Positions 21,251 through 63,914 of a stretch of 64,000 bases of DNA are shown here, piece after piece (position 1 is the first letter of the stretch; every line of letters begins with the position of its first letter). A program made the translations under genes and the position numbers. The DNA comes from an uncultured Holophagae bacterium (GTDB lineage Bacteria > Acidobacteriota > Thermoanaerobaculia > Thermoanaerobaculales > Sulfomarinibacteraceae). Where the stretch lies: assembly GCA_963714385.1 (NCBI GenBank), contig CAVQOJ010000003.1:263720-327719 (forward strand), written 5' to 3'. The notes below the pieces were generated by a model. The model did no database searches and was not told the DNA's origin. It worked only from the letters and a program-made list of their open reading frames with translations.

Positions 21251-21296
21251 GTTGAAGGCTGGAAGTTGAAAGTTGAAAGTTCCCGCCCTCCCTCCC
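21251..21296. repeat. period-7 array (GTTGAAG GCTGGAA GTTGAAA GTTGAAA GTT) fused to the C-box CCCGCCCTCCCTCCC
   Basis: The array starts 3 nt after the stop codon at 21246-48. The C-box at 21282..21296 is GGGAGGGAGGGCGGG on the other strand, a canonical four-tract G-quadruplex motif. Confidence 0.9.
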
Positions 21297-21316
21297 AATT
21301 TGAGAGTTGAAAGTTG

Positions 21317-21866
21317 GGTTCATCCGGGAAAGCGTGAGGTCGGGGTTCTGCCGTGCCCGTGCCCGGAATGCAGCGGCTGCGACAGTATTCAGCGGCAGCG
21401 ACCGGGAACAGCGATCAGGGACAGCAATCAGTATTCAGGGGCAGCAATCAGTTGTCTTGGCGGAATAGCACATGGACACCTCCGGGTCGTTCAAAGGAAG
21501 GAGTAGCCGGTGGGCAGCCGATGTCAAGGGCAAGCCGGCCCACGGGTCCGGTGTTACACACCCTTGACATCGGTTGCCTCACCGGCTTGTGAGGGAGGGC
21601 ATGAACGACCCGGAGGTGACCATGTCCAAAGCCGTCACGAACACCAACCTCGTTGCCTAGCGCCTGCTCAATCCCATCTGAGCGCACCCTGCTCTCCGAT
21701 ACTGACGCTGTCAACTGACGCTGCCGCGGGTCCCCGCCGCTGGCTTCTGACGCTGTCCCTGATTGCTGATTCCCCGGATGAAGCCGCGGTTCCTCTTCGG
21801 GCGAGCAGGTGCCGTTGTGAACTCCGAACTCGATCGACCCCCACCTCACGGAATTTCGGATGAGCC
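21317..21866 (+). mobile_element. degenerate second copy of the intervening-sequence-like element (ORF core deleted)
   Basis: Termini GGTTCATCCGGGAAAGCGTGAGGTCGGGGT and ..ACCCCCACCTCACGGAATTTCGGATGAGCC are about 23/30 complementary. Collinear with 14999..15846 but lacks ~290 bp: ..AACCTCGTTGCC joins directly to CGCCTGCTCAATCCCATCTGA, leaving an in-frame TAG. Confidence 0.6.
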
Positions 21867-21867
21867 C

Positions 21868-21916
21868 AACTTTCAACTTTCAACTTTCAACCGGGGGGGT
21901 GGGTGGGGGGGCTGGG
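21868..21916. repeat. period-7 array AACTTTC x3 fused to the G-box GGGGGGGTGGGTGGGGGGGCTGGG
   Basis: Units at 21868-74, 75-81 and 82-88. G-box at 21893..21916. The array is the reverse complement of the GTTGAAA array at 21251..21281. Confidence 0.9.
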
Positions 21917-21918
21917 AA

Positions 21919-24150
21919 TCAACCGGTCGGCGTCTGCATCCGGTCGTCGAGGATCTTGCGGAGGTGGTTTTCCTCCTTGAGGGTTCGAGCCAGGAGCTCG
22001 TCGGCCTCCTCTACGGGCACCGGCGCCGAAATGAACATCCCCTGAGCACGGTCGACTCCCAGGTCGCGAAGGGCGTCGAATTGGGAGCGGGTTTCGACCC
22101 CCTCGGCCACCGTCTGCTTGCCGAGGTTGCCGGCTAGGGTGGTGATGGTCTTGACGATCTGCGAGCTCTCCTCGTCGGCGAGCATCCGCGACACGAAGGA
22201 GTAGTCGATCTTGAGGGTGTCGATCTTGAACCGCCGGAGGTAGGCGAGGGACGAGTAGCCGGTTCCGAAGTCGTCGATGCTGATGCCGATATCCAGGGAT
22301 CTCAGCTGGTCGAGCATCTCCGACGCGTACTGAGCGTTCTCCATCAGGACGCTCTCCGTCACCTCGAGAGTCAGGCTGCGGCCGTAAAGCCCGGTCTTGC
22401 GCAGGATGTGGTCGATGCGGGTCACCAGGTCGGGCTGCATGAACTGGGTGCCCGAGACGTTGACGCTGACGTTGAGGGGGGGATTGTGACGGTACTGGCC
22501 TTGCCACGCCCGCAGCTGCCGGCAGGCCTCTTCGCAGACGAATCGATCGATCTGGATGATGGCGCCCATCTCCTCGGCCACGTGGATGAACTCTCCGGGT
22601 AGGAGCAGTCCACGCTCCGGGTGGTCCCACCTGACCAGAACCTCGAACCCGGTGATCCGCCCGACGGCGATCGAGACGATCGGCTGGTAGTAGACCTCGA
22701 ACTCGTTGCGGGCGATGGCGCGGCGGAGGTCGGTCTCGAGCTTGAGGGTTGCCACCACCTTGGCGTGCATCTCCTCGTCGAAGACGGCAAAGTTGTTGCG
22801 GCCCATCGCCTTGGCGCGGTACATGGCGGTGTCCGAGTCGCGGAGCAGATCCTCGGGCCGCTCGTAGCTCGGCTTCCAGACGGCGATGCCGATGCTGACC
22901 GTGGAAAAGACCTCGAGGCCGGCGACGTCGAATGGGATCCGGAACTCCTCGTGGATACGCTCGGCGGCCACCGTGGCACCGCGGACATCGGTGATGTCCT
23001 CGACGATGATGACGAACTCGTCGCCGCCGAAACGCGCCACGGTGTCCGATGGGCGGCAGGCCGACTGCACGCGCTGGGCGATGGCGCTCAGCAGGCGGTC
23101 GCCGGTGAGGTGGCCGAGGCTGTCGTTGACGTTCTTGAAACGGTCCACGTCGAAGAACAGCACCGCGAACGGCCGGCTGGGATCGCGGCGGGCGCGCGCG
23201 AACGCGAGTCGCAGCCGATCCATCAGCACAGTACGGTTGGGCAGCTTGGTGAGGGGGTCGTGGAGACCGCCGATCCGAATTTCTCCGTTCGGCTCCTCGG
23301 AGTGAACGTCGATCTGGCGGCCGACAATCCGGTGGACCGCACCGGTTGCGTCGCGCAGCATCTCGGCGCGCGCGAGCATCCACCTGTAGTCGCCGTCCTT
23401 GTGGAGGATCCGGTAGCGATGCTCGATGGGAGTCATGCTGCCGGCCAGGTTGGCATCGATCATGTTCCTCAGGCGCTCTCTGTCGTCCTCGTGAACGAGG
23501 TCGAACCAGACCTCCGGGGTCGATCCAAGCTCGTCTCCCGAGTAGCCCAGCATCTGCTTCCACCGGAGGGAGTAGTGCACCGTGTTGTGGTCGACATCCC
23601 AATCCCAGATCCCGTCGTCCTGGCCACCGCAGGCGATCACGAATCGGTCGTAATCGGATCGCAGTTCCCGATTCGAGTCGACGATGTCGGCCACGTGACC
23701 GATCCGGCCGGCAAGGAATCTGAGCTTGGTCGTGATGTCTTCGACAGCAACTGGATGGGAAATGAAATCGTCGCAGCCGAGGGCCAGCACCTCCTCGAGG
23801 GTGCCGGCGTCGTGGTCCGGGACGATGGCGAGAACCTGGGGTCCGGCGTACTCGTCTCGTCGGAGCTCGGCAAGGATCTCCCTGAGGTTCGCCGAGGGCA
23901 GGCGCCAGTCGACCACGGCCATGGACGGCGCGCTGCAGCGCACAACGGTGCGTGTTTCGTCGGGATCGGGAACGATGTGGGCGACATTCCCCATTTCAAC
24001 CACCACGCCCGCGACCATGTCGGCGAGTTCCCGGTCGCCCGACACGATCACCACGTTTCGGCTGGCTGCAGGGGGAGGTGAGTCCTGAACATCCGGGCCG
24101 GTTGAGTCCGTCATTCCACGGAGGCGGGCCAGCAGGTCGCGCCAAGTCAT
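21919..24150 (-). CDS. response-regulator receiver / PAS / GGDEF / EAL c-di-GMP turnover protein
   Basis: 743 aa. N-terminal receiver-like domain, PAS (DGIWDWDVDHNTVHYSLRWKQMLGY), RFGGDEF, EAL-domain blocks (EVLVRW, DDFGTGYSSL, KIDYSFV). Confidence 0.9.
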   Translation of the reverse strand: MTWRDLLARLRGMTDSTGPDVQDSPPPAASRNVVIVSGDRELADMVAGVVVEMGNVAHIVPDPDETRTVVRCSAPSMAVVDWRLPSANLREILAELRRDEYAGPQVLAIVPDHDAGTLEEVLALGCDDFISHPVAVEDITTKLRFLAGRIGHVADIVDSNRELRSDYDRFVIACGGQDDGIWDWDVDHNTVHYSLRWKQMLGYSGDELGSTPEVWFDLVHEDDRERLRNMIDANLAGSMTPIEHRYRILHKDGDYRWMLARAEMLRDATGAVHRIVGRQIDVHSEEPNGEIRIGGLHDPLTKLPNRTVLMDRLRLAFARARRDPSRPFAVLFFDVDRFKNVNDSLGHLTGDRLLSAIAQRVQSACRPSDTVARFGGDEFVIIVEDITDVRGATVAAERIHEEFRIPFDVAGLEVFSTVSIGIAVWKPSYERPEDLLRDSDTAMYRAKAMGRNNFAVFDEEMHAKVVATLKLETDLRRAIARNEFEVYYQPIVSIAVGRITGFEVLVRWDHPERGLLLPGEFIHVAEEMGAIIQIDRFVCEEACRQLRAWQGQYRHNPPLNVSVNVSGTQFMQPDLVTRIDHILRKTGLYGRSLTLEVTESVLMENAQYASEMLDQLRSLDIGISIDDFGTGYSSLAYLRRFKIDTLKIDYSFVSRMLADEESSQIVKTITTLAGNLGKQTVAEGVETRSQFDALRDLGVDRAQGMFISAPVPVEEADELLARTLKEENHLRKILDDRMQTPTG

Positions 24151-24367
24151 GGCTCACTTCACCTGGCGGGTGCGGGCGTCGTCGCGCTGTGGGGACGGTG
24201 ACACGGGCGTGGTGAATCCCTCTCGTTGTGTGTTCACGCTTCGATCAAACATACCACTGCCGGGCCCGACAGGGCAAAGCCCCGCGCCATCGACCGGCCC
24301 GGCGGTCAACGGGGTTGTCCGATTCCCTGCCAGAACAGAAAATGTCCCCGGGATGTAAACTGCGCTG

Positions 24368-27300
24368 GTGAAGAGGGTCCGGCGATGGTTGGTGGCTGCG
24401 GCTGCGGTTCTGCTGGTGGTGATGACCGCCGGGCTGGTGCTGGTCCACCTCCCGCCGGTCCAGCGGCGTGCCTGGTCGAAGATCGTGGAGTCGGTGGCCG
24501 CCGAAACCGGCTGGCGGCTCGAGGCTCGGAGCGTCCGTTTCCGGTTGTTTCCGGCCGTCTTGGTGATCGACGGTTTCGGCATGGGAACGGGCGACGCGCA
24601 GCCGATCGCCGCCGACCACCTGGAGATTCGTTTTAGCTGGCGGCGGCTGATGGGAACGCCGCGCTCCGTCGACCGTGTGGTGATCGAAGGGCTCGAGGTG
24701 GACGGCACCCAGTTTGAGCTTCCCGAGCCAACAGGATCTCCTCAAGAGCCCCCAGCCGTCGATCCCTGGCGGACCCTCGAGATCGCCGAGCTCAGCCTGG
24801 CGGACGGCCGGCTGGTGGCGGCGGGCGGGGGAGTGGGCCTGAACGTGCAGCGGCTCAGCATCGCCGGGGCGCTGCGTGAAGGCACCGCCGAGGTCGAGAT
24901 CGATGCCGGGAGCCTGGCGGTCGACCGGGACGGCCGACGGCTGGATGCAGGCAGGTTGGTCATCGCCGCCCGAGCGGCGGCCTCGGGCGTCACATTGGAC
25001 CGAGTTCGGCTCGACGGGGCCAATGCACGGCTCATCGCATCCGGTGATCTCTCGGTATCGCCCGCGGTCGCCGGAACAGGAACGATCACCGCCGAGGCCG
25101 ACCTCCCAGCTCTGGTGAGCTGGTGGGATCCCGGGTTGGTTGACGTTTTCTCGCCCGAAGGTCGTCTCGCCATCGACGCCGGGATCTCGTACGCCCCGGA
25201 CGGCGGGTTCGAAATCAACATCCATCAGCGCGGCGATCCGGTTGGCATTTCAGGGTTTTCGGTCAGCAACCTCGCTGTGGAGCACGGCGGGGGCGTCACC
25301 CGGGCCTCGGCGGAGCTCGTGGGGCTGGGAACGGTGGAGCTGGCGTCCGTCGGAGCGCAAGGCTACCGACTGGTGGCCGACGTGGGTGAGGTGCGGATCG
25401 CCCGGCTTCTCGCCCTGGTGAACCGCCCGGCCATCGATGTCCTGCCGGAGGAGTTGACGGTCGGCGGTGAGGTCGAGGCGACCTTCGTCATGCCGATCAA
25501 CCTGGAGACCGCCGCGGCCGGTGGGCGGCTCGTGGTCCGCTGGCCGGAAGGCCACGTGGAGATCGAAGGATCGGGCGGCGGCCGGGATTGGGACCTGCGC
25601 CGGCTGGAGCTCGAGGTGCCGGGGGCGATTGGCTCCGGCAGGGGTGCGCTTGCCGGCGGCTCGATCACTGCGGATGTCCACATCCAGATCACGGACCCCG
25701 CGGCATTGGCCCGGGCGGCCGGTCCGTGGGTTCCTGCGATCGCCGCGCTGGCGGTCGGTGGTGGGCCGATCTCCCTCGACCTGAGGGCTTCGGGCGCATT
25801 GGAAAACCCCTATCTCGAAGCCGATCTGGACTGGATTGGTCCGGAGGTCGGCGGGGCGTCGATGGACGAGCTCCGGGCTGCGATTTCGGGGACCCTCGAT
25901 GATCTGGGTTGGAATGTGGAGCTGCGGCCGGGTCCTGGTGCCCTCGTGTCGGCGGATGGCAGGGCCGGCTTCCCGGAGCTGAGCGTCACTGGATCGTGGG
26001 CGGTGACGGTGGATTCGATCGTTGACCTCGAGCTGGTTCGACGATGGTTGCCTCAGGAGATCTCGGGAGAGCTCGCCGCGACCGGCCATTTCCGGTGGCA
26101 AGGGGGGGATTCCTGGAAGGTCGCCGGGTTCGCGGAGGCCGGCGACGTTGGCGTGGGCGGCTGGCTGGTGGACGAGGCGTCGGCGCGATTCGAGCTGGGT
26201 CCGGGTGGCGGGTCGGTGGCCGACGCGCGACTGCGGATGGGCACGGCCACGCTGGAGCTGGATGCCGATCTGCTGCCGTTGAGCCTCCAGGGGGATCTTC
26301 AAGCCGCGGTGCGGGTCGAAGGGTTGGATCTCGGCCAACTGGGATTGGGAGAGGCGGCGCGGGGCAGCCTTCGGGCGACGGTGGCGGTCGGCGGAACTCC
26401 ATCCGAACCGGTGCTGGTGGGGGATTTGGACTGGGCCGACGACGCCGAGGTGGCGATCGCCGACCCGGTGCGGATGCACCTAACCCTAGAGAGCGGCCGG
26501 TTCGAAGCGGTTACCGAGACCTGGCGGACGGTCGCCGGACCGATCCAGGCCGAGGTCGACATTCCCCTCGGAGACCTGCCGCGGCCGGAGTGGTTCTGGC
26601 CCGATTCGCCGACCGGGCCGATCCGGGCCCGGCTGACCGGAATCGGGCTCACCTCCAGCCCGCTGGTGGCGGCGCTCGGGCTGGACCCGTTGCCGGGAGA
26701 GGCATCGGGAGACGTGAACGTGGAGGTGGCCTGGGATCTGTCGGGCCCGGGGTCGCGCCTGGTACTGGTCGAGATCGACGGGCTCACCGCCAAGGGCGCC
26801 CACATGGACCTGACCGCCCAGGAAACCGTTCGGTTGCGATTCCTCGACAACCGCCTCGAGGTCGAGTCGGTCAGCCTGGTCGGGCCGCGCAGCAGGGTCG
26901 AGCTCGGGGGGGTCTACGACCTCGGCAGCCGCCGTCTGGTGGGCGCCGCCGACCTCAGTCTCGACGCCAGGGTCGTCGAGATGCTGCCGTTTCCGATTCG
27001 TGCCACCGGTCCGATCCGAATCCAGGCCGGTGTGGACGGCCCGATGGAGGGTCTCACCGCCACTCTTCTGGTGGACCACGAGGGCGGGTCGATCGTGATG
27101 CGTGATCCGGCCGTCGAGCTCACCGATCTCCGACTCCGGGTGGAGATCGACGACGGGGTGGTGTGGATCCAGGACGGGGAGGCCGGGCTCAATCAGGGGC
27201 GGCTGTGGATCGGCGGCGGCTGGGACCCAGCCATTCGGCAGGGCGTGGTGCTGGAGTTCGAGGACGTCAAGGCCCTGCTCGGCACCAGCATCGTCACCAG

Positions 27301-30253: not shown

Positions 30254-30256
30254 AAA

Positions 30257-32615: not shown

Positions 32616-32643
32616 CAGATTGGTGACGTTCCAAATGCCATGT

Positions 32644-44465: not shown

Positions 44466-44502
44466 TCGACCCTGCTCATCTGCTTTCTGCTGCTGTCGGC
44501 GA

Positions 44503-44541
44503 GTTGAAAGTTGAAAGTTGAAAGTTCCCGCCCGCCCACCC
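44503..44541. repeat. period-7 array GTTGAAA x3 GTT fused to the C-box CCCGCCCGCCCACCC
   Basis: Units at 44503-09, 10-16 and 17-23. C-box at 44527..44541 (GGGTGGGCGGGCGGG on the other strand). The ~50-nt segment from CTGCTGCTGTCGG onward is homologous to 61524..61570. Confidence 0.9.
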
Positions 44542-44574
44542 GAGGCAGGCCCAGCGCCCGCGTCGGGGCCCAGC

Positions 44575-44730
44575 GACGGCGGCAGTCTTCAGCGTCAGCC
44601 TCCAGAATGGCCGGTGCAGAGAGTTCCAATCAGAATTCTGGGTTGAACGACCCGGAGGTGGTCATTTGCTGTGCCGACAAGGCAACTGATCGCTGCCGCT
44701 GAAGACTGATCTCTGTCCCTGCCGCTGCAG
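44575..44730 (-). mobile_element. relic fragment of the intervening-sequence-like element
   Basis: 44682..44722 is the reverse complement of 15135..15175 at about 40/41 identity (GCAGGGACAGAGATCAGTCTTCAGCGGCAGCRATCAGTTGC). 44643..44660 (TTGAACGACCCGGAGGTG) matches the outer-stem / ORF-start sequence. No TIRs, hairpin core or ORF remain. Confidence 0.5.
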
Positions 44731-44742
44731 TTCGGACGCCGA

Positions 44743-54152: not shown

Positions 54153-54193
54153 CGTTTTCGAATTCGGTTTTCCGAATTCCGAATTCCGAATTT
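54153..54193. repeat. period-7 array CGTTTTC GAATTC GGTTTTC CGAATTC CGAATTC CGAATTT
   Basis: 54166..54193 is near-identical to 37689..37723 and to the reverse complement of 13720..13754. Lies between the gloB stop and the GATase start. Confidence 0.9.
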
Positions 54194-54225
54194 CCTCGTG
54201 CCGGCCAATCTCGGCCATACCCCGA

Positions 54226-55002: not shown

Positions 55003-55096
55003 GCTCCGATGTTGCCAGGACCCCAACCTCCGGTCAACGGACCGTAACTGGAGGAAACGCGAATACTGAAGGGCGCCAACGCGTTAAGATCGGGAA

Positions 55097-56077
55097 ATGG
55101 ATACTCGCTACCTGCTGGTCGCCGACCCCGTGTCAACCCTCAACCCGACCTTCGACCTCGGCGTGTGCGTCGCCGCGGAGTTGATCCGCCGGGGCATCAC
55201 GGTCGATTACCTCGACCTGCTCGCCAGCGACGTCTCCCTCGCCAGCAATGACTACCTGTCGAACCTCCCGGTGCGCCGAATCCTGTCCTCGGATGCAGGC
55301 CGTGATCCGTTCTGGGTGCTGGCCGAGGAGCGCGTGGCGAGGGTCGGTGAGTACCGGGTCATCCTGCAGCGCAAGGACCCCCCGGTCGACGAGCGGTTCG
55401 TGGCCTTCAGCCGGCACTTCGAGCAAGTCCCCGAGGACATCGTCCAGATCAACCGGCCGCCGGCCACCTACGGTCTCTCCGAGCACACCGTCATCGATCG
55501 TTATCCCGACTACGCCGCCCCGACTGAGGTGGCGACGAGCTTCGAGGAGCTGGCGGCGGCCGTCCGGTCGATGCCCGGCGAGGTGGTTCTGAAGCCGAAG
55601 AGCACCTACTGCGGAATCGGCGTGACCTTCGTCTCCAACCGCGCGGCGGCCGCCGAGCTGCGCGAGTTCTGGGAGGCCTGGCGCCCGGAGGTGATCGTCC
55701 AGCAGTATCTCGAAGCCATCGAGGCCAGTGGAGACCTGCGGATTCTGACCATCAACGACCGCATCCTCGGCTCCGTCCTCCGGGTTCCTGCGCCAGGGTC
55801 TCGGTTGGCCAATCTCCACCAGGGGGCGTCGGCGGCGAGGTTGGAGCCGACCCCGCGGCAGATCGAAGCGTGTCACGCGGTGGCTGCCGACCTGAACCCC
55901 ATGGGGCTTCACCTGCTGGGGCTCGACTTCATCGGGGAGCACCTCACCGAGGTCAACTTCACCTCGCCGACCACGATCGTCCAGATCAACCAGGTCAACC
56001 AAATCCGGGCGGACGTGGAGCTGGTGGACGAGCTCGAACGGATGTGGCGGGCACGCGCCGGCGGCTCGAGTGTCTGA
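55097..56077 (+). CDS. gshB: glutathione synthetase (prokaryotic ATP-grasp type)
   Basis: 326 aa. Collinear with GshB (VILQRKDPPVD, GDLRILTINDR, GLDFIGEHLTEVNFTSPT). Divergent from gloB. Confidence 0.75.
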   Translation: MDTRYLLVADPVSTLNPTFDLGVCVAAELIRRGITVDYLDLLASDVSLASNDYLSNLPVRRILSSDAGRDPFWVLAEERVARVGEYRVILQRKDPPVDERFVAFSRHFEQVPEDIVQINRPPATYGLSEHTVIDRYPDYAAPTEVATSFEELAAAVRSMPGEVVLKPKSTYCGIGVTFVSNRAAAAELREFWEAWRPEVIVQQYLEAIEASGDLRILTINDRILGSVLRVPAPGSRLANLHQGASAARLEPTPRQIEACHAVAADLNPMGLHLLGLDFIGEHLTEVNFTSPTTIVQINQVNQIRADVELVDELERMWRARAGGSSV

Positions 56078-56378
56078 TCGGGCGAGCCGCAACCGGGTGG
56101 TCTGCCGTGATCGTGGGGTTCCCGACGGCTGGGTCGTGGTGGCGGTCTACCACAACCCGGCGTGCCCGGGCGATGGCGCCAACGCCCTGGTCGTCAAGCG
56201 CCCCGGCCGCCGCGACGTCGTGTGGTCCGAGTCGCCCGTTCCAGACGGCTACTCGAAAACACGGTCGACCCACTCGGAGCACTTCCCGGGCGAAGGCGAC
56301 AATGCCGTCGTCATCGAGCGGAAAATCGAGAATGAAAAATGGAAAATGAAAAAACCGAGATCGCCGCGGGAGAGTTGA
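56070..56378 (+). CDS. small hypothetical protein with an internal duplication
   Basis: GTG 56070 overlaps the gshB stop. Two ~30-aa repeats (VPDGWVVVAVYHNPACPGDGANALVVKRP and VPDGYSKTRSTHSEHFPGEGDNAVVIER). The last ~15 codons run through the heptad array at 56320..56354. Confidence 0.4.
   Translation: MSDRASRNRVVCRDRGVPDGWVVVAVYHNPACPGDGANALVVKRPGRRDVVWSESPVPDGYSKTRSTHSEHFPGEGDNAVVIERKIENEKWKMKKPRSPRES
56320..56354. repeat. period-7 array GGAAAAT CGAGAAT GAAAAAT GGAAAAT GAAAAAA
   Basis: Five units in register. Related to the reverse complement of the AATTTTC array at 2463..2497. Confidence 0.85.
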
Positions 56379-56465
56379 CTCTCAGCTATGCCCCAGGTTG
56401 ATACGAGGGACCGGAACGAGCCGCTAGTCAGCGACGGTAAGGCTGGCTCAAAAGAAACAAAATCA

Positions 56466-56509
56466 CTTCGAAAAGCGGGGTAGGGAGGGAAGGGGGCAGC
56501 TTTTCGAAG
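56466..56509. repeat. hairpin with a G-quadruplex motif in its loop
   Basis: Arms CTTCGAAAAGC (56466-76) and GCTTTTCGAAG (56499-509), 11 bp perfect. The loop GGGGTAGGGAGGGAAGGGGGCA carries four G tracts. An extra right-arm copy CGCTTTTCGAAGCG lies at 56554-67. A second copy of the element starts at 63967. Confidence 0.8.
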
Positions 56510-56567
56510 AGACAATCGCCACCGTTCTTGTCAGCAATGACGAACCGGGGGACCGCTTTTCGAAGCG

Positions 56568-57290
56568 TTAATCGCCGGCGCTGGCTCTGGCGGGGAGGTT
56601 CCTGTCGACGAACATCTCCAGCCGCAGCCGGTCAGAGCCCTCGAACGAAACGAAGCGGACCCCCACGCCGTGCACCATCTCGCGCCGGGGATCGGTGGTC
56701 CTGGTGATCTCGGCGGAGCCGCGGATCGCGTTGGGTTCGTCCGGCACCACGATCTCGAACTCGAGGGTGGTCCCGATCGGGAACTGGGTGACCCCCCGAA
56801 GCAGCATGCCCGACGCCGACAGGTTTTCGATCTGGGCCATCAGGCGGAGCGGGCGCCCGTCGGCGAAGAGCTGAACTCGGGCAGGCATGCGCACCGACAC
56901 GCGCGGCGCCGGACGGGCGAGCTCCTCGACGGCGGACAGGATCTTGCTTTCCAGCTCCCGATCCAGGACGACCCGGTTCGCCCCCTTGCCGATCAGCGTC
57001 GAAGCCGCGTCGGAATGCTCGCCCTCGGTGATCAGCAGCAGGCCGGCACGGCGGCAGGCGGCGCCAGGGGCCCGGGCGGTGTCCAAAAACCTGTTCAGCG
57101 CGGCCTTCGACACCGGATAGCCGATGATGATGACGTCGAACGACGTGCCCTGGACCAGCTCGAGAGTGGTGCGGTCCCATCGCGCGTAATGCAAATCGAC
57201 CCGCGCCGTGCGCAGCAGCTCGGTCACCCGGCGGTGGGTGGCGTCGTCCACCCGGGTCAAAAGAACCTGTTTCTTGCTTCCAGCCGACAT
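56568..57290 (-). CDS. PilZ-domain protein with receiver-like N-terminal domain
   Basis: 240 aa. C-terminal RVSVRMPARVQLF ... IENLSASGMLL ... GVGVRFVSF matches the PilZ RxxxR / D.S.GG pattern. The N-terminal half is receiver-like. Confidence 0.7.
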   Translation of the reverse strand: MSAGSKKQVLLTRVDDATHRRVTELLRTARVDLHYARWDRTTLELVQGTSFDVIIIGYPVSKAALNRFLDTARAPGAACRRAGLLLITEGEHSDAASTLIGKGANRVVLDRELESKILSAVEELARPAPRVSVRMPARVQLFADGRPLRLMAQIENLSASGMLLRGVTQFPIGTTLEFEIVVPDEPNAIRGSAEITRTTDPRREMVHGVGVRFVSFEGSDRLRLEMFVDRNLPARASAGD

Positions 57291-57310
57291 CCCCAGAGAT
57301 TATACCGACT

Positions 57311-60300
57311 TCAGTACGCACCCTCCATGGTTGAAGCCGAAGCCGGAATGTAGACCGGGTCGCCGCTGTCGCCGTCGACCACCGAGGCATGGGCCACGAA
57401 GCGGGCAGCCGCGTCGTCACTGTGAAGGACGGCCCACGCGGTGCCGACGTGGCCAAGCTCGCTTGAGAGGATCCTGGTCACCTGGAAAAACCCTCCGGCG
57501 ACCAGCGGAACAGAGATCTCTCCGAGCAGGGCGCCGCCGTCGGCGAAGACCTGCACCGCGACCGTGGTCGCCTCGCCGGCGAAGGAGGTGATGCCGAGGT
57601 TGGTGCGGAAACCGTCGGCCGAGCTGAGCCCGCCGAGGACGACGGCCTGCCCGACCGTCACCGCCTGTGAATCCGTGACCGCCGGCACGAGCTGTCCGTA
57701 GGTCCCGGCAACGGCATCGTTGTAGGTGCGGCTCGATGCCGTGATCCCGGGAGCGGCAGGCATCAGCTCCAACCACCCGGATCCGGTTGTGGCGAAGACC
57801 TGGCGCACGAGATCCTCGAGCAGCAGCGCGGCGCCGGCGGCCAACGTGCGGCTGGATTCGGCGGTCGTTGATCCGTCGGCAGGGTGAAACACCAGGCCGA
57901 CGTCGACCGCGACGTCGCTGAGGTTGACCATCGAGAGATCGGACCTCCACATCGTCTGGTTGTCGCCTGGATTGGAGGCGACGACCGGGATGACCAACCG
58001 GCCGGCGGGCAGGTCTGTCGCATCCACCGGCAGAATGAGGGTCGGGTCGTGGGAGCCGTCGTCGACCACCGAACCGTAGGCGGAGAAGCGTGCGCTGTCG
58101 TCGGTCGCGGAGATGACCGCGTAGCCTCCGCGCACCGCCTCGGTGGTGAATTCCGCAATGACCTCGTTGTTTTGTGCGAACGCACCGGCCGCGACGGTCA
58201 GGGTCCCCGACCCCAGCACGGCGCCGTCAACGCCGTACAGCTCGTAGAGCAACACCAGGGATTGGTCGCCGAAGTTGAAGGCCCCGATGTTGGTGTGGAA
58301 GCCGCCGTTCCCGGCCAGGCCCGGCAGCACGTACGACCGGTCGCCCGGGAGCGCTGCCCCGCGGGCCAACGACGGAATGTACTGGCCGTAGGTGCCGCCC
58401 TGCTCGTCGGAAAAGGTGCGCGACACGCCCACGAATCCGGACCCCGACGCACGGATGGCGATGCCGCCTGCCCCGTGGTGGCCGGTGGCGGCGACCAGGT
58501 CGGCCAGCGACCGTTGACTGCGAGCCGGCAGCGACATGGTGAGGTCGGGCCCGGGGTCGGTGCGGGGGGCGGTCGGCCGGAAGCTCAGGTCCACCATCAG
58601 GTCGGTGTTGGTGGGATTCAGGAAGAAACCGCGCGACCGCCACTGGGATCCGCCCAGTCCGGGCGTGCTGGCCGCCGCCGGGAAGGCCCACTCCTCGACC
58701 GCCTGGACATCCCCAACCAGGTGAGCGCTGACCGGCACGATCGCGCGAGGCAGACCGCGATCGTCTGAAGACACGGTCAAGCTGCCGCGCGGGTCCGCCG
58801 AGCCCCCGTCCTCGACCACCAGCGAAAGCTCGCCGCTGGCCCCGGGCGGGAGCACCGACCCGGCGCCGAATGGCCCGTTAACGATGGCGAAGGGGCCGTC
58901 GACCTGCACATCCAGGACGGTCAGGTCTTCGGTTCCGGTGTTGCTGACCGTCACCGGTCGGGAGGCTCCCTCGACCGTGACGCCGAAGCCGATAGGCGCC
59001 GGGGAGATTTCGATCCGGGGCGCACCGGCGCCGGTTCCGGAGATCTGGATCTGCTTCTCCGGGGTGTCGGGATCGTTGCTCAGCAGGGTGAGAACGGCGG
59101 CGTGCGGGCCCACGGTCTCCGGCGCGAACCGAATGAAGATCGGCAGTGAGTCTCCGGCCGCGATCGCCTCGGGAATGGCAGTGCCCATGCTGAAGCCGGC
59201 GCCGGTCAGCTGAGCGCTCAACGCGAGGGGCGCCGCACCGAAGTTGAGGACGGCGACGATCGCCTGCCCGAAGTCTCCGATCGGAACCGTTCCGGCATTG
59301 GAGGTGGAGGGAGACACCAGGCGCGGGTTCTCCGACAGGGCGCTGCGTCCCGTGATGGGCAGGTATGCAAAGCCCCCCAAGTACGAGGGATCGTTGGTGT
59401 AGAAGAGGATCCAGTCGGACTGCTCCCCCGACGACGACGAGCTGAATTCAATCACCAGATCGAAGGACTCGCCGGCGGCGAGGGTGATCGGCAGGTCGGT
59501 GGGGGAGGTGATCGAAAAGCGCGAACCGCTGCTCATCGCGAGGTCATCGATGATCAGGTCGCTGCCGCCGGTGTTGGTGATCGGCAGGACGACGGTAGAG
59601 GGCTGTCCGCGCCACACCTGGCCGGCGTCGAGGTCGGGTGCATCGGGACCGAAGTCGAGATCGGGCTGGGACGAATGGCTCAGGTGGCTGAGGACGATGC
59701 CGTCCGGGTCCAGCTCGACGCCGGTGGCGGTCGCGCCCAGCTGGAGATCGATGACCTGCTCGGCCACCGCTTCGAGGTCGATGCGGTGGCGTTCGGTGCC
59801 AGAGGTGGTGGTGACCGCCACGTCCATGGGGATTCTGAAGTAGGGTGCGTTCGAATGCTCCTGGGTTACCGTGAGCCGGACCGCCGGACCCGCGACGGCC
59901 TGCCAGTCGAACTGGATCCTGGGCCGGTTGGACCCGTAGACCCACTGGTCGAAGAACCAGTCGAGCTCGGTGCCGGAGGTGGCTTCGAGCACGGCCCGCA
60001 GCTCCTCGCTGGTGGCGGAATCCTCGGCGAACGCTTCACGGTAGGCGCGCAGGCCGGGAAAGAAGGCGTCGTCGCCCATGACGTCGCGCAGCATCCGCAG
60101 CACCAGGGCGCCCTTGTCGTAGACGGTTCGTGAAAACGACACCGGGTTGTCGTAGAGGGGACCGGTGAAGAACTGGGCGGGGTCGGCGTCTTCGGCGTAC
60201 TGCCTGACGAAGTCCTCATCGTAGCGATCTTCGGCCCACACAAACTCCGAGTAGCTCGCGAAGCTCTCGTTGAGCCACAGCTCGCGCCAGTCGTCGCAGG

Positions 60301-61396
60301 TGACCCAGTCGCCCCACCACTGGTGGCCGAGCTCGTGGACGTTGAGCCACTCCATCCAGGGATCGCCGAAGAAGTTGCCGATGGTGGTCAGGGTCTGGTG
60401 CTCCATGCCGCCGCCGAAGTTGGCGGTGAGATTGCCGTACTTCTCTTCAACGAACGGGTACTCATCGAACCGGGAGGCCAGGCTTTCGATCATCTGGGGG
60501 GTGATCGCGAGATCGGCCTCACCGGCATCGGCGAGCTCCGGGTACAGGTAGGCCACCACCGGCATGGTGGATCCGTCGAGGGCGTTGTAGGTCCATTCGC
60601 GGTAGGCGTAGTCCGAGAGGTTCATGACCACCAGGTAGGTGGCCACCTGGTACTGCGACGACCAGGTCGTGGTGGCGGTGCCGTCCGGATTGTCGATGCG
60701 GGACGTCTGGAGCCCGTTGGCGGCGACAGTCAGCTCCGCCGGCGCGGTGACGATCAGGTCCACCGTGGCCTTGTCGTCGGGCCGGTCGTTGCACGGGAAC
60801 CAGACCCGCGCTCCGAAGGGTTCGGCAAAGGTGAAGATCGACCGCGCTCCGGTGTGGTACGACCAGTTGATGCCGTAGCCGGACTGCGAGCCGTGGCCGC
60901 CGTAGGGAATCAAAAGACGTACCGACTCGCCCGCCGAAAGCGGCCGCGGGAGGTCGACGGTGAGGCGGTCCTCGGCGTGCTGGAAGTTGAGCGAGGACGG
61001 GGAGTCCCCGGGGAAGGCGCTGTCGGACAGCAGCACCACCGCCATAACCCTCAGCCCGAGAGCGACGTCGAGCTCGATTGATCGCAGACCGTCCTCGACG
61101 GCGGCGATGTCCACCGCCGCAGTCCCGGAGACCACCTCACGATTGACATCGAGGAGCAGGTCCAGTCGGTAATGGAGGACGTCGATGGGCGACGGGTCGG
61201 GCACCGGCGCCCAGTTCTCCGGTTGGGCCATGGCCATCAGGAGCGCCTTCTCGTGCGAGGCTCGCTTGGCCTCGGCCTCGGCCGCGTGGCGGCTCGTCGC
61301 GAAGGGCTGAAAGGTCCCATCGCCGGTATCCGCCTCATCGGCGAAGACGGGTAGAGCGATCAGCGAGCAGAGACAGAAAGTGGCGAAAAAACGCAT
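57311..61396 (-). CDS. secreted M1-family (aminopeptidase N-like) metallopeptidase with a ~850-aa beta-rich C-terminal extension
   Basis: ATG 61396 lies 5 nt after GGAGG. Signal sequence FFATFCLCSLIALPVFA. GGMEHQT, HELGHQWWGD and WLNESFASY (GxMEN / HExxH-E). The C-terminal half contains repeated Ig-like or choice-of-anchor-like segments. Confidence 0.85.
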   Translation of the reverse strand: MRFFATFCLCSLIALPVFADEADTGDGTFQPFATSRHAAEAEAKRASHEKALLMAMAQPENWAPVPDPSPIDVLHYRLDLLLDVNREVVSGTAAVDIAAVEDGLRSIELDVALGLRVMAVVLLSDSAFPGDSPSSLNFQHAEDRLTVDLPRPLSAGESVRLLIPYGGHGSQSGYGINWSYHTGARSIFTFAEPFGARVWFPCNDRPDDKATVDLIVTAPAELTVAANGLQTSRIDNPDGTATTTWSSQYQVATYLVVMNLSDYAYREWTYNALDGSTMPVVAYLYPELADAGEADLAITPQMIESLASRFDEYPFVEEKYGNLTANFGGGMEHQTLTTIGNFFGDPWMEWLNVHELGHQWWGDWVTCDDWRELWLNESFASYSEFVWAEDRYDEDFVRQYAEDADPAQFFTGPLYDNPVSFSRTVYDKGALVLRMLRDVMGDDAFFPGLRAYREAFAEDSATSEELRAVLEATSGTELDWFFDQWVYGSNRPRIQFDWQAVAGPAVRLTVTQEHSNAPYFRIPMDVAVTTTSGTERHRIDLEAVAEQVIDLQLGATATGVELDPDGIVLSHLSHSSQPDLDFGPDAPDLDAGQVWRGQPSTVVLPITNTGGSDLIIDDLAMSSGSRFSITSPTDLPITLAAGESFDLVIEFSSSSSGEQSDWILFYTNDPSYLGGFAYLPITGRSALSENPRLVSPSTSNAGTVPIGDFGQAIVAVLNFGAAPLALSAQLTGAGFSMGTAIPEAIAAGDSLPIFIRFAPETVGPHAAVLTLLSNDPDTPEKQIQISGTGAGAPRIEISPAPIGFGVTVEGASRPVTVSNTGTEDLTVLDVQVDGPFAIVNGPFGAGSVLPPGASGELSLVVEDGGSADPRGSLTVSSDDRGLPRAIVPVSAHLVGDVQAVEEWAFPAAASTPGLGGSQWRSRGFFLNPTNTDLMVDLSFRPTAPRTDPGPDLTMSLPARSQRSLADLVAATGHHGAGGIAIRASGSGFVGVSRTFSDEQGGTYGQYIPSLARGAALPGDRSYVLPGLAGNGGFHTNIGAFNFGDQSLVLLYELYGVDGAVLGSGTLTVAAGAFAQNNEVIAEFTTEAVRGGYAVISATDDSARFSAYGSVVDDGSHDPTLILPVDATDLPAGRLVIPVVASNPGDNQTMWRSDLSMVNLSDVAVDVGLVFHPADGSTTAESSRTLAAGAALLLEDLVRQVFATTGSGWLELMPAAPGITASSRTYNDAVAGTYGQLVPAVTDSQAVTVGQAVVLGGLSSADGFRTNLGITSFAGEATTVAVQVFADGGALLGEISVPLVAGGFFQVTRILSSELGHVGTAWAVLHSDDAAARFVAHASVVDGDSGDPVYIPASASTMEGAY

Positions 61397-61456
61397 GCGG
61401 TCCTCCAAGGGCGGGCATTGTACAAGGTCCGCGGGATGTCGGCACGCCGACGGAAG

Positions 61457-61512
61457 CAGTTGGCCGTTAGCCGTTGGCCGTTAGCAGTTAGCCGTTGGCA
61501 GTTTACGGTGTC
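61457..61512. repeat. period-7 array, 8 units (CAGTTGG CCGTTAG CCGTTGG CCGTTAG CAGTTAG CCGTTGG CAGTTTA CGGTGTC)
   Basis: Longest array in the window. Its reverse complement family (AACGGCC / AACTGCC) lies at 61992..62026. Confidence 0.9.
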
Positions 61513-61539
61513 GCAGCCGTTGGCTGCTGCTGTCGGTGA

Positions 61540-61570
61540 GTTGGAAATTGAACGTTCCGCCCGCCCTCCC
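61540..61570. repeat. period-7 units GTTGGAA ATTGAAC GTT fused to the C-box CCGCCCGCCCTCCC
   Basis: Homologous to 44503..44541 and 21265..21296, including the upstream CTGCTGCTGTCGG segment. Confidence 0.8.
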
Positions 61571-61971
61571 ATCATTGGAGACAGAAAAACACAGAGAAAC
61601 ACTGACTTCCCCCGCCCGCCCGGGTGAGAAGGGGAGGAGGGGAGAAAAGGAGAAAGAAAAAACCCTGAATGTGGATAGGGAAACCCATCCTCCCACCTGG
61701 GTGAGATGAGGAGAAGGGGAAGGCTCCCGTCGACGCCTCCTTCCATTGTCATCCCGAACGAGGGCCGAAGGGCCGAGGAGGGATCCGTTCGACTCGCTTC
61801 TCTCGCTCAGGACAAGTCTGGGTCAGCGGTTGATGCCATAAACCACTCGAGAGAGCCCGAACAGGACGACTCGGTTGCACATAACGAACCGATCCGCGCC
61901 GAACGATTCCCGAGATTGCCCAGGTTCTTCCGTGACCCTTCAGTTCCCGTTCCCAATGACATCCATCGGCT

Positions 61972-62052
61972 GGGCCGGGTGGGCGGGCGGGAATTCCCAA
62001 CTGCCAACGGCAAACGGCCAACTGACATCCGGGTGGGTGGGCGGGGGCTGGG
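61972..62052. repeat. G-box, period-7 array, G-box composite
   Basis: GGGCCGGGTGGGCGGGCGGG (61972-91). AATTCCC AACTGCC AACGGCA AACGGCC AACTGAC (61992-62026). GGGTGGGTGGGCGGGGGCTGGG (62031-52). Ends 38 nt before murB. Confidence 0.9.
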
Positions 62053-62089
62053 CTTGAGGCGGGGCGTGCCTTAGGGCACACTGGCCCGG

Positions 62090-63190
62090 ATGGAATTCGA
62101 CCGGGCCATGCGCCCCGTGAAAACTCGCGACGCAGTCGACCTGGCGTCACTCACCACTCTGGAGGTTGGGGGACCGGCCCGTCACTATCTGGAGGTCGAT
62201 GACGAGGGCGCGCTGTTGGAGGCGCTGGGGTGGTCGAGGACCGAAGGGCTGCCGGTCACCGTCCTCGGCGGGGGCAGCAACGTGGTGATCGCGGACGCCG
62301 GGGTCGAGGGGTTGGTGCTCCGAGTCGGCCTCGGCGGGATCCGGGTGCAACGAGATGGTGACGCCGCCTTACTGACGGCGGCGGCGGGAGAGCCGTGGGA
62401 CGGCGTCGTCGCACATTCCCTGGCCGATGGCCTGGCGGGTCTGGAGTGCCTGTCCGGGATTCCCGGATCGGCGGGTGCGACCCCGATCCAGAACGTCGGC
62501 GCCTACGGCCAGGAGATCGCCGACGTCATCGACTCGGTCCGGGTGGTGGACCGATCGACCCTGGAGGTATCCATCCTGTCGCCCGGCGATCTCGGCTTCG
62601 ATTATCGCACCAGCCGGCTGCGCGAGACTCCGGACCGGTTCGTGGTGCTCGACGTCAGCTTTCGGCTCACCAGGGGTGGCGACGCGGTCGTTCGCTATCC
62701 CGAGCTGCGGCGGGCGTTGGAGGTGCATGCTGCCGCCCCGTCCCCAGCCCAAGTTCGGGAGGCGGTGCTCGAGCTGCGGCGCTCCAAGTCGATGGTGATC
62801 GAGCCGGACGACCCGAACCGTCGCAGCGTCGGGTCGTTCTTCGTCAACCCCGTAATCGAGCCGTGGGCCGGCGCCGAGCTCGAGCGTCGGGTCGAGGGCT
62901 TGGGCGAGGGCCGCGCCGTGCCGATGTACGCGACCGAACCCGGGCGGGTGAAGGTCTCGGCAGCCTGGCTCATCGAGCACTCGGGCTTCGCCAGGGGACA
63001 CGGGCGCGGGGCGGTCGGCCTGTCCACCCGGCACTGCCTCGCCCTGGTCAACCGCGGCGGCGCCACGGCGCGCGAGATCATCGCCTTCGCGAGGGACATT
63101 CGTCGTGCGGTTCGGGACCGCTTCGGGATTCTCTTGCAGCCGGAGCCGGTCTTTCTCGGGTTCGATCGTTCGAATCCTCTCGACGAATAG
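62090..63190 (+). CDS. murB: UDP-N-acetylenolpyruvoylglucosamine reductase
   Basis: 366 aa. FAD-binding LTTLEVGGPA, VLGGGSNVV, GIPGSAGATPIQNVGAYG and a C-terminal SAAWLIE block. Confidence 0.9.
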   Translation: MEFDRAMRPVKTRDAVDLASLTTLEVGGPARHYLEVDDEGALLEALGWSRTEGLPVTVLGGGSNVVIADAGVEGLVLRVGLGGIRVQRDGDAALLTAAAGEPWDGVVAHSLADGLAGLECLSGIPGSAGATPIQNVGAYGQEIADVIDSVRVVDRSTLEVSILSPGDLGFDYRTSRLRETPDRFVVLDVSFRLTRGGDAVVRYPELRRALEVHAAAPSPAQVREAVLELRRSKSMVIEPDDPNRRSVGSFFVNPVIEPWAGAELERRVEGLGEGRAVPMYATEPGRVKVSAAWLIEHSGFARGHGRGAVGLSTRHCLALVNRGGATAREIIAFARDIRRAVRDRFGILLQPEPVFLGFDRSNPLDE

Positions 63191-63196
63191 GTGCGG

Positions 63197-63231
63197 AGTC
63201 AAAAGTCCAAAGTCAAAAGTCGAAAGTCGGA
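63197..63231. repeat. period-7 array AGTCAAA AGTCCAA AGTCAAA AGTCGAA AGTCGGA
   Basis: Starts 7 nt after the murB stop. Same leader (GCGGAGTCAAAAGT) as the array after oleA. Confidence 0.9.
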
Positions 63232-63372
63232 TGGCGAAGGTCGAGGGGGGTTGGGCATCGGGCTTGGATTGAAGGCCTGTCGGTCGGGCGTGGTTGGTTT
63301 AATTGGAAGGTGGTTGACGCGGTGAAGATCGGGCCGCACATTGGAGTGGGTTCGCTCCGAGGAGGGTTTGCA

Positions 63373-63864
63373 ATGAACGCAACGAAACTCGTCGGCGTGG
63401 TCGCAGTCATCGGTGTGGTAGGTCTGGCTGGAGTCGCCGGTGCGGCGGAGGGCTCGGATGACAATCGGCTGGCGGGGGTCGAGGAATCCCTGGCTCGAAT
63501 TGAAGCTCTCCTTGAGGAGCTGGTCGAGACCTCGAAGGCGAACGTCATCGCGTCCATCTACGAGACAACAGTGACGCGAATCGGTGTGGTAGAGAGCAGG
63601 CATGCCGAGATCGAGAAGGAGGAGCGTGCAACGCTGTTTGCAATCGAAGGCGTTCGAGGGCGACTCGACGATTTGTCCACCACGGGGATGGCGCTGACGA
63701 ACGACGAAAAGACCGAGATCGCTTCCGATCTTGAACAACGAGCGATTGAATTTGAAGAGTCCCTCAGGGATTTTAGGTCCGCGATCGCGGAGCTCGAAGT
63801 TGAACTCCTCAGTCTCGAGGTTCAAAGAAGCAAACTCGAGGAAGCGATCGCAGATCTGCAGTAA
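63373..63864 (+). CDS. small secreted coiled-coil protein, lower G+C than its neighbours
   Basis: ATG 63373 within ORF 62395..63864. Signal-like MNATKLVGVVAVIGVVGLAGVAGAAEG, then a heptad-rich Glu/Leu/Ile helix. Third codon positions are visibly richer in A/T than in flanking genes. Confidence 0.55.
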   Translation: MNATKLVGVVAVIGVVGLAGVAGAAEGSDDNRLAGVEESLARIEALLEELVETSKANVIASIYETTVTRIGVVESRHAEIEKEERATLFAIEGVRGRLDDLSTTGMALTNDEKTEIASDLEQRAIEFEESLRDFRSAIAELEVELLSLEVQRSKLEEAIADLQ

Positions 63865-63868
63865 AACT

Positions 63869-63914
63869 GGGCGGGCGGGTGGGAACTTTCGACTTTCAAC
63901 TTTCAACTGCCAAC
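63869..63914. repeat. G-box GGGCGGGCGGGTGGG fused to the period-7 array AACTTTC GACTTTC AACTTTC AACTGCC AAC
   Basis: The G-box starts 5 nt after the stop at 63862-64. The array is inverted relative to 63197..63231. Confidence 0.9.

Follow-up and report, generated by a model that had tools for sequence, protein, structure and literature searches.

Heptanucleotide arrays at gene ends with a one-sided G-rich box: a candidate compound hairpin element in a Holophagae lineage

Introduction

Among the long simple-sequence repeats (LSSRs) of bacteria, tandem arrays of seven-nucleotide units are the commonest, and polymerase slippage was put forward to explain them (Mrazek 2007, as summarised in PMC4679880). 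We analysed such arrays in a 64,000-nucleotide stretch of contig CAVQOJ010000003.1 (assembly GCA_963714385.1, positions 263,720 to 327,719) from an uncultured Holophagae bacterium. In this stretch, hereafter the window, A/T-rich heptad arrays stand at the ends of genes, and a number of them adjoin a short G-rich box of the form (GGGN)n (G-box; C-box when read on the other strand). An earlier reading of the same DNA, the original prediction, took box and array for one composite element of consistent polarity in which the box folds as a G-quadruplex (G4).

Several described systems resemble these arrays. The TAACTGA repeats of Beggiatoaceae, Cyanobacteria and Bacteroidetes lie a few nucleotides upstream of start codons and were proposed to be translational signals (MacGregor 2015, PMC4679880), with cold-shock and S1 proteins as the proposed readers of heptamer repeats in Beggiatoaceae. 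In the GGGNATC/GGGGAYT repeats of Xanthomonas and Nostoc each heptad contains a G-tract and four units are preferred; G4 potential was demonstrated by circular dichroism (Rehm et al. 2015, PMC4692102). Repetitive extragenic palindromic sequences (REPs), which also occur in bacterial interspersed mosaic elements (BIMEs), are palindromes of 20-40 bp and unique sequence that are tied to REP-associated tyrosine transposases (RAYTs) (Di Nocera et al. 2013, PMC3733652).

Results

G-rich boxes adjoin heptad arrays, preferentially on one side

Period-7 arrays are frequent in the window: Tandem Repeats Finder (TRF) reported 19 and a lag-7 criterion 21, against about 0.6 in shuffled sequences, while the same lag criterion returned no arrays of periods 8 to 11 in the window. 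A strict G4 pattern (four tracts of at least three G, loops of 1-2 nt) matches the window seven times, at 21893, 56477, 61972, 62031 and 63869 on the plus strand and at 44527 and 21282 on the minus strand, against a mean of 0.74 in dinucleotide shuffles of the window. All seven matches are intergenic; the spacers amount to 5.8 kb (58.7% G+C, below that of the coding DNA), and 0.035 matches would be expected there, an enrichment of about 200-fold. Three-tract boxes follow suit: of the 13 in the window, 12 are in spacers, where 0.75 would be expected. All but one of the seven strict motifs have an array within 12 nt, the exception, at 56477-96, being the loop of a separate stem-loop. As the original prediction had held, the pairing of box and array is therefore not a product of chance, and every sequence that it quoted was recovered where it had been placed.

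The boxes are less uniform than had been described. Six of the seven that had been called canonical G4 motifs do consist of four G-tracts with loops of 1-2 nt; that at 61557-70 (GGGAGGGCGGGCGG) has three G3 tracts plus GG, and that at 21893-911 (G7TG3TG7) counts as four-tract only when a G7 run is split or a downstream GGG is used. The three boxes set apart as looser are indeed so: 2449-61 has three tracts, 13710-16 consists of one G7 run, and in 8985-9015 a fourth tract is reached only across an 11-nt loop. The box itself has a period of 4, (GGGN)3-5.

For comparison we used four contigs: L120, from a syntenic relative; L121 and L123, from one genome; and L122, from a closer relative. Positions 61999-63184 of the window are 91.6% identical to L122, and MurB of the window is only 56% identical to that of the L121/L123 genome. 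The window and L121 to L123, contigs that were chosen as carriers of such boxes, together give a set of 36 boxes, and the consensus GGGYGGGCGGG is common to all four. At least four G-tracts are present in only 11 of the 36, and 25 have fewer. Among boxes beside arrays, four tracts occur in 6 of 9 in the window versus 3 of 16 in L121/L123. Four-tract boxes with short loops have G4Hunter scores of 1.95-3.4, a measure of predicted propensity only.

An array was called beside a box when the adjoining 30-mer had at least 11 of 14 lag-7 matches, a level reached by 9.8% of spacer 30-mers as background. On the G-rich strand, an array lies on the 3' side of 17 of the 36 boxes (p=1e-8 against this background) and on the 5' side of six (p=0.14, not significant); the 17:6 split is itself uneven (p=0.035), at roughly 3:1. 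Both the adjacency and the one-sidedness are real and statistically solid. Within the window the order is box then array in eight cases (2449, 8985/9002, 13710, 21282, 44527, 61557, 61972 and 63869) versus array then box in two. The consistent polarity that had been claimed thus survives as an enrichment of the 3' side alone, and is a 3:1 bias rather than a rule once more copies are counted; the one exception then noted, at 21893-916, is an exception as stated, and a second, at 62031-52, had been missed. The description of the arrays as AAnTTnC-type fits only AACTTTC and AATTTTC, with GAAATTC, GGAATTC and AACKGCC among the other box-linked units. As the bias spans at least ten different heptad units, it is not merely the trace of a single family that was copied, although the five AACTTTC-type copies of the window are homologous to one another and so do not count as independent events.

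Strand was considered with respect to both transcription and replication. The nearest upstream gene has the C-rich strand as its sense strand in 13 of 18 instances (p=0.10). GC skew is positive throughout the window, which by this measure belongs to a single replication arm, and nine of its G-boxes are on the plus strand and four on the minus strand; neither imbalance is significant. A stricter rule, that the C-rich strand is always sense for the abutting gene, was dropped after a programmatic count of 13:5 (p=0.10).

Arrays lie at gene 3' ends and often face an inverted partner

Only 4 of the 55 arrays in the window and its relatives lie inside called genes. Among spacers of at least 40 nt, arrays are found in 12 of 15 convergent, 14 of 31 tandem and 5 of 16 divergent ones (p=0.011, convergent versus divergent). 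Most spacers that follow a stop codon have an array at a distance of up to about 40 nt from it (2, 6, 9, 10, 12, 13 and 15 nt among others), and in most spacers of the window the arrays are 6-33 nt from stop codons versus 29-162 nt from start codons. Of the 55 arrays, 26 are self-complementary or have an inverted partner within 800 nt, against 5 of 55 in the control (p=1e-5). No box adjoins 37 of the 55. The idea that arrays beside boxes are purer or younger was rejected, as there is no difference in purity (p=0.38).

In compact copies the two features combine in the order 5'-heptad array, C-box, loop, G-box, array'-3' (L121 18968-19100, L121 6507-6746 and L123 11111-11216). The first and last of these fold strongly (z=-5.8 and z=-5.6), array pairing with array' and C-box with G-box, and L123 11111-11216 is the whole of the 106-nt spacer that separates the stop codons of two convergent genes. 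A palindromic layout of this kind equals its own reverse complement, so that the order "G-box then array" is read on whichever strand is G-rich. The window contains inverted pairs at 21250-75/21867-92, 61457-89/61992-62024, 61557-70/61977-90 and 63193-227/63885-919. Here the nesting is stretched by insertions (61455-503...61557-70 / 61972-91...61992-62026): the arms 21251-96 and 21867-916 enclose a decayed PF05635 element, described below, and the arms 63193-227 and 63885-919 a cassette of about 750 nt. Hairpins made of heptad arms only are found in the window at 7534/7607, 32581/32639 and 33837/33906 (z=-2.9 to -3.2).

The three-tract boxes of L121/L123 are the 3' arms of GC-rich stems of 6-13 bp that run directly into the heptad array. 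The same genome has a dispersed family of the form ACGGCACGCCCGCCCATCGCGCCC...CTCC-GGGTGGGCGGG-TG(TTTCGTTC)n, which folds as a GC stem leading into an array that is T-rich in three of the four copies folded, and which has a terminator-like look. A clean division into four-tract boxes without a partner and three-tract boxes with one was tried and rejected, as duplex energies are too noisy in GC-rich flanks; it stands as a hint only.

A second G-rich family, in convergent spacers, has a stem of 11-13 bp (CTTCGAAAAGC/GCTTTTCGAAG) and a loop of 20-22 nt that is a four-tract G-run. The copies at 63960 of the window and at 2697-2737 of L122 are orthologous, with the G-tracts kept and the remaining loop letters different. 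The stem is not favoured thermodynamically (z=-0.2), because the G-run competes with it.

Arrays stay in place while boxes turn over

At the 3' ends of the genes for pyruvate dehydrogenase E2, GDH2 (a glutamate dehydrogenase, GDH) and a kinase like pyruvate, phosphate dikinase (PPDK), the same unit family is kept in the window, L120 and/or L121; the families are AAACGTT/AAAGGTT, AAAGTCN and TTGAARA. A C-box follows the PPDK array in the window and L121, not in L120; one follows the E2 array in L121 only; and at GDH2 a C-box is inserted between stop codon and array in L121 only. Arrays thus hold their position and unit family, and boxes come and go at their edges, which marks the array as the stable element and the box as the accessory. 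L120 has arrays at the same spacers and no short-loop box; it carries (GGGAAC)n and (GGGTAC)n hexamer tracts instead, which form a C-rich/G-rich inverted pair in the spacer orthologous to window 8942-9112. G3-containing arrays of other periods lie at L120 5479-5499 and 11568-11588 and at L123 20173-20217, the last being (GGGACTC)n, and all three units give formal G4 motifs with loops of 3-4 nt.

Where a box is present, box and array behave as a module that is copied as a unit, and to this extent the composite element proposed earlier is borne out. The five AACTTTC-type copies of the window have box and array in common, about 35-55 nt, together with 14 nt of flank in two copies, and upstream of MurB a single unit of G-box and (AACKGCC)4 in the window corresponds to four in tandem in L122, a 46-nt higher-order repeat. 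In the array region upstream of MurB in L122 there is also an IS110-family transposase gene (149-1105), beside the tandem modules (1320-1521).

Outside the lineage we scanned a genome collection for exact (AACTTTC)3; the matches listed (L001-L119) do not include the source lineage. Three or more units occur in more than 119 species, including Bacteroidota, Cyanobacteria, Acidobacteriota, Planctomycetota and Patescibacteria, and of the 18 G-boxes in the loci listed not one adjoins an array. Since neither these loci nor L120 have the pairing, the composite is specific to the lineage and not a general rule. Among the same matches, many (AACTTTC)n arrays adjoin other heptad families or an inverted partner, and those of Bacteroidota often end 5-15 nt before an ATG, as at rplB in L116. 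Metagenome occurrences of the box sequence GGGTGGGCGGGCGGG gave no new copies: 2 of 119 had a flank above the lag-7 threshold, both low-complexity and C-rich.

The modules resemble several described elements and match none

As in the heptanucleotide LSSRs of bacteria, including the short tandemly repeated repetitive (STRR) heptamers of cyanobacteria, the units are head-to-tail beyond chance and mainly non-coding. Summary accounts of those repeats describe intergenic arrays of 3-7 units with many families per genome and a scatter across phyla, all of which is found here; they differ from the present arrays, about half of which are in inverted pairs at gene 3' ends and about a third of which have a (GGGN)n box on a defined side. 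The TAACTGA repeats are likewise heptamers repeated 2-6 times in spacers with a scattered phyletic distribution. Unlike them, the window arrays mostly follow stop codons, are built from many different units and have G-boxes, and none was found in the window to end within a few nucleotides of a start codon.

The repeats of Rehm et al. are also intergenic; they are depleted in divergent spacers and keep to within about 50 bp of open reading frame (ORF) ends. In contrast to these, the heptads of the window are A/T-rich and lack G3, and G-tracts occur apart from them, in a period-4 box at the edge of the array; the only array of the Rehm type is (GGGACTC)n at L123 20173-20217, in a relative and not in the window. 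Like REPs and BIMEs, the modules are imperfect palindromes of short length that are dispersed among spacers, in many cases downstream of a gene, with inverted pairs, strong folds and an enrichment in convergent spacers; they occur singly or in composite clusters, in either orientation, and are targets for insertion sequences (PMC3733652 for the REP side of the comparison). Unlike REPs, their arms are tandem heptads whose units vary by locus, and no Y1 transposase was found among the Pfam matches of the window genes, the window being the extent of that search. The modules therefore share features with the LSSRs, the TAACTGA repeats, the Rehm-type repeats and REP/BIME, yet match none of them.

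Bidirectional intrinsic terminators consist of an A/T-rich tract, a GC stem, a loop, a GC stem and an A/T-rich tract between convergent genes, and their flanks can extend the stem. This layout is common to the modules, which differ in having no continuous U-tract, loops that often exceed 8 nt and an orientation that is at times antisense to both neighbours. The combination of a GC stem, a loop of 3-8 nt and an immediate U-tract on the sense strand was not found in them; their tails are interrupted U-rich or A-rich heptads. A scan for canonical terminators does not flag the modules, and such terminators are not enriched in the window (10, 14, 8 and 6 found against 10.3, 10.2, 9.3 and 2.5 in shuffles). 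Sigma-70 promoters, also considered, show no enrichment in the window and no overlap with modules.

Cassettes and genes associated with the arrays

At window 14999-15868 a nested palindrome of about 870 nt, with ends that read GGYTCATCCGG...CGTGAGGT, carries in its loop a gene of family PF05635 (23S rRNA intervening-sequence or Avd-like four-helix bundle). Further copies are present in the window and in relatives; in L120, as in the window, the element is located in the E2/PD40 spacer. It always lies within a heptad array, with AAAAGTCA on both sides, with AAAGGTT on both sides, or between GTTGAAAGTTG and CAACTTTCAAC. A near-identical protein is encoded in a Holophagae metagenome-assembled genome (MAG), and in two further MAGs, of Bacteroidales and of Cytophagaceae, PF05635-like ORFs are immediate neighbours of (AACTTTC)n arrays. 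Seven such ORFs in 950 kb, two of them adjacent, among the matches listed, are a raw count that is no more than suggestive of an enrichment of PF05635 genes at (AACTTTC)n arrays across phyla. When the modules were considered as miniature inverted-repeat transposable elements (MITEs), the box-array copies were found to share only about 35-55 nt. The PF05635 element has terminal inverted repeats and heptad-like flanking duplications (AAAAGTCA; AAAGGTT), and is a separate entity inserted into arrays, not the box-array module.

Relative to L122, and as judged from flanks aligned by hand, window 63191-63938 is an insertion of about 750 nt, with inverted heptad arrays on either side. It contains an ORF at 63373-63861 (163 aa, with a signal-peptide-like N-terminus, coiled-coil-like sequence and no Pfam match), and its G-run at 63245-55 and G-box at 63869-83 are both on the plus strand. 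Elsewhere, a hairpin-like repeat, GTCATCCCGAACGAGGG...CTCGCTCAGGAC, at window 61732-61835 reaches a contig depth of up to 65x in sediment metagenomes, versus 0-10x for neighbouring sequence, and this depth makes it look like another widespread dispersed repeat. The DNA sequencing runs match distant relatives only, with at most 14% of the window's words present in sediment metagenomes, and short contigs in them show the repeats to be multi-copy in sediments.

The window is Acidobacteriota-like (65% G+C overall, 63-70% along its length) and codes mainly for housekeeping functions, among them pyruvate dehydrogenase E1/E2, two glutamate dehydrogenases, PPDK-like kinases and MurB, together with a BamA/TamB giant protein and an M1 peptidase. 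The closest relatives of its GDH and MurB come from metagenome-assembled Acidobacteriota named Holophagae, Thermoanaerobaculales or Sulfomarinibacteraceae; a planctomycete origin, to which composition had pointed, was rejected in view of these relatives. The second GDH paralogue (7657-8941, minus strand) is in two frames, broken near 8180-8229, as a result of either a frameshift that makes it a pseudogene or a fault in the assembly; L120 and L121 have an intact gene. No Rfam family matches anywhere in the window.

Table 1. Coordinates of boxes, arrays and associated elements (window positions unless a relative's contig is named).
Position	Strand	Feature
2449..2461	+	G-box GGGTGGGTGGGGG, three tracts; solo module, no local hairpin
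2462..2498		(CAATTTT)5 array, 26 nt past stop of minus-strand PPDK-like gene; orthologous to L120 (TTGAAGA)n array
8985..9015	+	Loose G-rich box GGGGGTGG...GGGGGTGGGGAGGG; sense strand C-rich, upstream of GDH paralogue start at 8941
9024..9050		(GAAATTC/GGAATTC) array, self-complementary, downstream of canonical terminator hairpin at ~9068-9100
13710..13716	+	G7 run adjoining array, no G4 motif
13720..13750		(GGAATTC)4 array in spacer of PD40 gene and response-regulator/PPDK gene; same spacer has arrays in L120, L121
15289..15693		PF05635 ORF
21251..21281		(GTTGAAA) array, 2 nt past lipase stop; left outer arm of 670-nt palindrome, 88-92% complementary to 21867-92
21282..21296	-	Box GGGAGGGAGGGCGGG, four tracts; C-box on + strand
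21297..21866		Decayed PF05635-type palindromic element between array arms, 85-94% identical to 15063-15849
21867..21891		(CAACTTT)3.6 array, right arm of palindrome
21893..21916	+	G-box G7TG3TG7CTGGG, 2 nt from stop of minus-strand EAL/GGDEF gene; array then box
44502..44526		(AGTTGAA)3.6 array, 36 nt past response-regulator stop
44527..44541	-	Box GGGTGGGCGGGCGGG, four tracts, solo; 14 nt flank and array common with copy at 61524-61570
61455..61503		(AGCCGTT/GGCAGTT)7 array, outer left arm; pairs with 61992-62024 (33 nt, 85% complementary)
61540..61570	-	Degenerate GTTGRAA array and three-tract box GGGAGGGCGGGCGG; C-box 93% complementary to 61977-90
61972..61991	+	G-box GGGCCGGGTGGGCGGGCGGG, five tracts
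61992..62026		(AACTGCC/AACGGCA) array, right arm; module x4 in tandem in L122
62031..62052	+	Terminal G-box GGGTGGGTGGGCGGGGGCTGGG, 37 nt before MurB start codon; conserved in L122
63197..63244		(AGTCAAA) array, 6 nt past MurB stop; inverted partner of 63885-63919; left end of ~750-nt insertion
63869..63883	+	G-box GGGCGGGCGGGTGGG, four tracts, 7 nt past stop of ORF 63373-63861; G-rich strand is sense; no local hairpin (z=+1.8)
63884..63914		(AACTTTC/GACTTTC) array, right end of insertion
21317-21866 and ~44545-44735 (decayed); L120 4730-5545; L121 to 13928; L123 from 18586; L076 2631-2969		Further copies of PF05635 element
56463-56512, 56553-56565, 63960-64000 (cut by window end); L122 2697-2737		CTTCGAAAAGC/GCTTTTCGAAG stem family
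L121 13370-13465	-	ACGGCACGCCCGCCCATCGCGCCC...TTTCGTTC family
L121 11620-11720; L123 20755-20845; L123 19050-19135		ACGGCACGCCCGCCCATCGCGCCC...TTTCGTTC family

Discussion

We tentatively read the modules, with a confidence somewhat short of even, as a lineage-specific compound hairpin element of REP/LSSR-like character at gene ends, in which the box is an accessory GC-rich segment of the stem. The A/T-rich heptad arrays would be the primary and older part of the module, and the G/C box an accessory gained and lost at array edges. Where both arms are boxed, the C-box of the 5' arm would pair with the G-box of the 3' arm to give a long hairpin a GC-rich core proximal to the loop, and a layout that is its own reverse complement would explain most of the polarity; the solo modules resemble single halves, or copies, of these palindromic units. 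We propose that the hairpins, as RNA stem-loops or DNA cruciforms, may punctuate gene ends through termination, insulation against read-through or protection of 3' ends, which would matter where canonical intrinsic terminators are no commoner than chance, and that they may also serve as landing pads for small cassettes. A punctuation mark at gene ends, one of the roles suggested by the original prediction, is plausible from position alone, and would apply to arrays and hairpins with or without a box.

A number of observations weigh against this proposal. The modules at 2449, 8985, 13710, 44527 and 63869 have no local C-rich partner and no significant fold (z of about 0 to +1.8), and a role as hairpin clamp cannot explain why these solo modules retain a box; they may be decayed halves, or may act otherwise. 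The orientation of modules to flanking genes is mixed, and two of the terminator-like copies in L121/L123 are antisense to both neighbours. Past the G-box, some families have a U-rich array (AACUUUC, CAAUUUU, UUCGUUC) and others an A-rich one (GAGAAUU), so that a classical terminator of hairpin plus U-tract is not general. The whole sample is 140 kb from four genomes, with copies that are partly homologous. None of the RNA sequencing runs searched contains window sequence.

A doubtful alternative, which nonetheless accounts for several features, is that the modules have no function and are compound microsatellites that arose by mutation, both (GGGN)n and 7-nt units being products of slippage, and that multiplied through duplication or were carried along with mobile cassettes. 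A G-rich structure may stall DNA polymerase after the sequence 3' of it has been copied, and 7-nt slippage at that place would then produce the one-sided polarity. The observed enrichment on one side matches this prediction of template-strand stalling. The standing of heptanucleotides as the commonest bacterial LSSRs, for which slippage has been proposed (Mrazek 2007, as summarised in PMC4679880), is in line with it, as are the period of 4 in the box, the period-6 and period-7 G3 arrays of the relatives ((GGGTAC)n and (GGGACTC)n), the fast turnover of boxes and the difference in module number, one versus four, between close relatives. The insertions flanked by modules (the PF05635 element, the 750-nt cassette and IS110 in L122) fit a mobile origin. 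However, the same unit family at the same gene ends in genomes with 56% MurB identity is not what would be expected of free-running slippage noise, two thirds of the arrays (37/55) are without a box, box-linked arrays are no purer than others, and the marked preference for gene 3' ends would have to be explained in some further way.

It is unlikely that the operative structure is a G4, formed in the displaced or template DNA strand or in nascent RNA, which together with the A/T-rich tract would act as a polymerase stop or pause signal in place of a terminator hairpin. An RNA G4 with a U-run reportedly stimulates termination at the mitochondrial conserved sequence block II (CSB II) (Wanrooij et al. 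2010), and this precedent, the short-loop four-tract form and high G4Hunter scores of six of the seven boxes first cited, and the concentration of strict motifs in spacers all speak for such a signal. The solo modules of the window keep four tracts without a hairpin partner, four-tract boxes beside arrays are commoner here than in L121/L123, where boxes have C-rich partners, and the second stem-loop family keeps the G-tracts of its loop while the other loop letters differ; the C-rich strand also tends to be sense for the nearest upstream gene (13/18). Against this, 25 of the 36 boxes of the lineage fall short of four tracts, orthologous arrays can do without a box, the paired copies would form duplex stems of C-box and G-box that compete with a G4, and the strand bias is not significant for transcription and absent for replication. 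G4 folding is possible in the four-tract copies, as judged from their motifs, but it is not the conserved feature, and a reading of it as the operative property is not supported.

Less probable again is a reading in which the G-box is a structural barrier that may be either a G4 or, interchangeably, a GC hairpin, and that would serve as a factor-independent stop or insulator for polymerases at gene ends in a lineage without canonical terminators, as a generator of 7-nt arrays on its 3' side, or as both. The solo modules of the window, with four tracts and no partner, versus the L121/L123 boxes, with three tracts and a C-rich stem partner, give a hint of such interchangeability. Very improbable, lastly, is a binding site for one protein, or for one per part (a nucleoid-associated or termination factor on GGGTGGGCGGG, a cold-shock- or S1-type protein on single-stranded 7-nt units): the recognisable box consensus across genomes and the readers proposed in Beggiatoaceae (PMC4679880) are in its favour, but at least ten unrelated units carry boxes (AACTTTC, CAATTTT, GAAATTC, AACKGCC, TTCGTTC, TTCCTTG, GAGAATT, AACGTTY and others), which no single sequence-specific reader of the arrays fits, random metagenome occurrences of the exact box have no adjoining arrays, and the window has no candidate gene linked to the modules.

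The role of heptanucleotide arrays has been a question since the 1990s, and this lineage offers an unusually legible case, in which the arrays stand at gene ends, keep their place and unit family, form the arms of hairpins and have a G-rich box on a defined side. Should the modules be only selfish or mutational debris, they would still be a useful marker of spacer dynamics and of hotspots for cassette insertion. If their one-sidedness reflects a hairpin or G4 barrier, they would provide a testable link between non-B structures, the punctuation of gene ends and the origin of 7-nt repeats, and would point to a way in which gene ends are marked in bacteria that lack canonical terminators.

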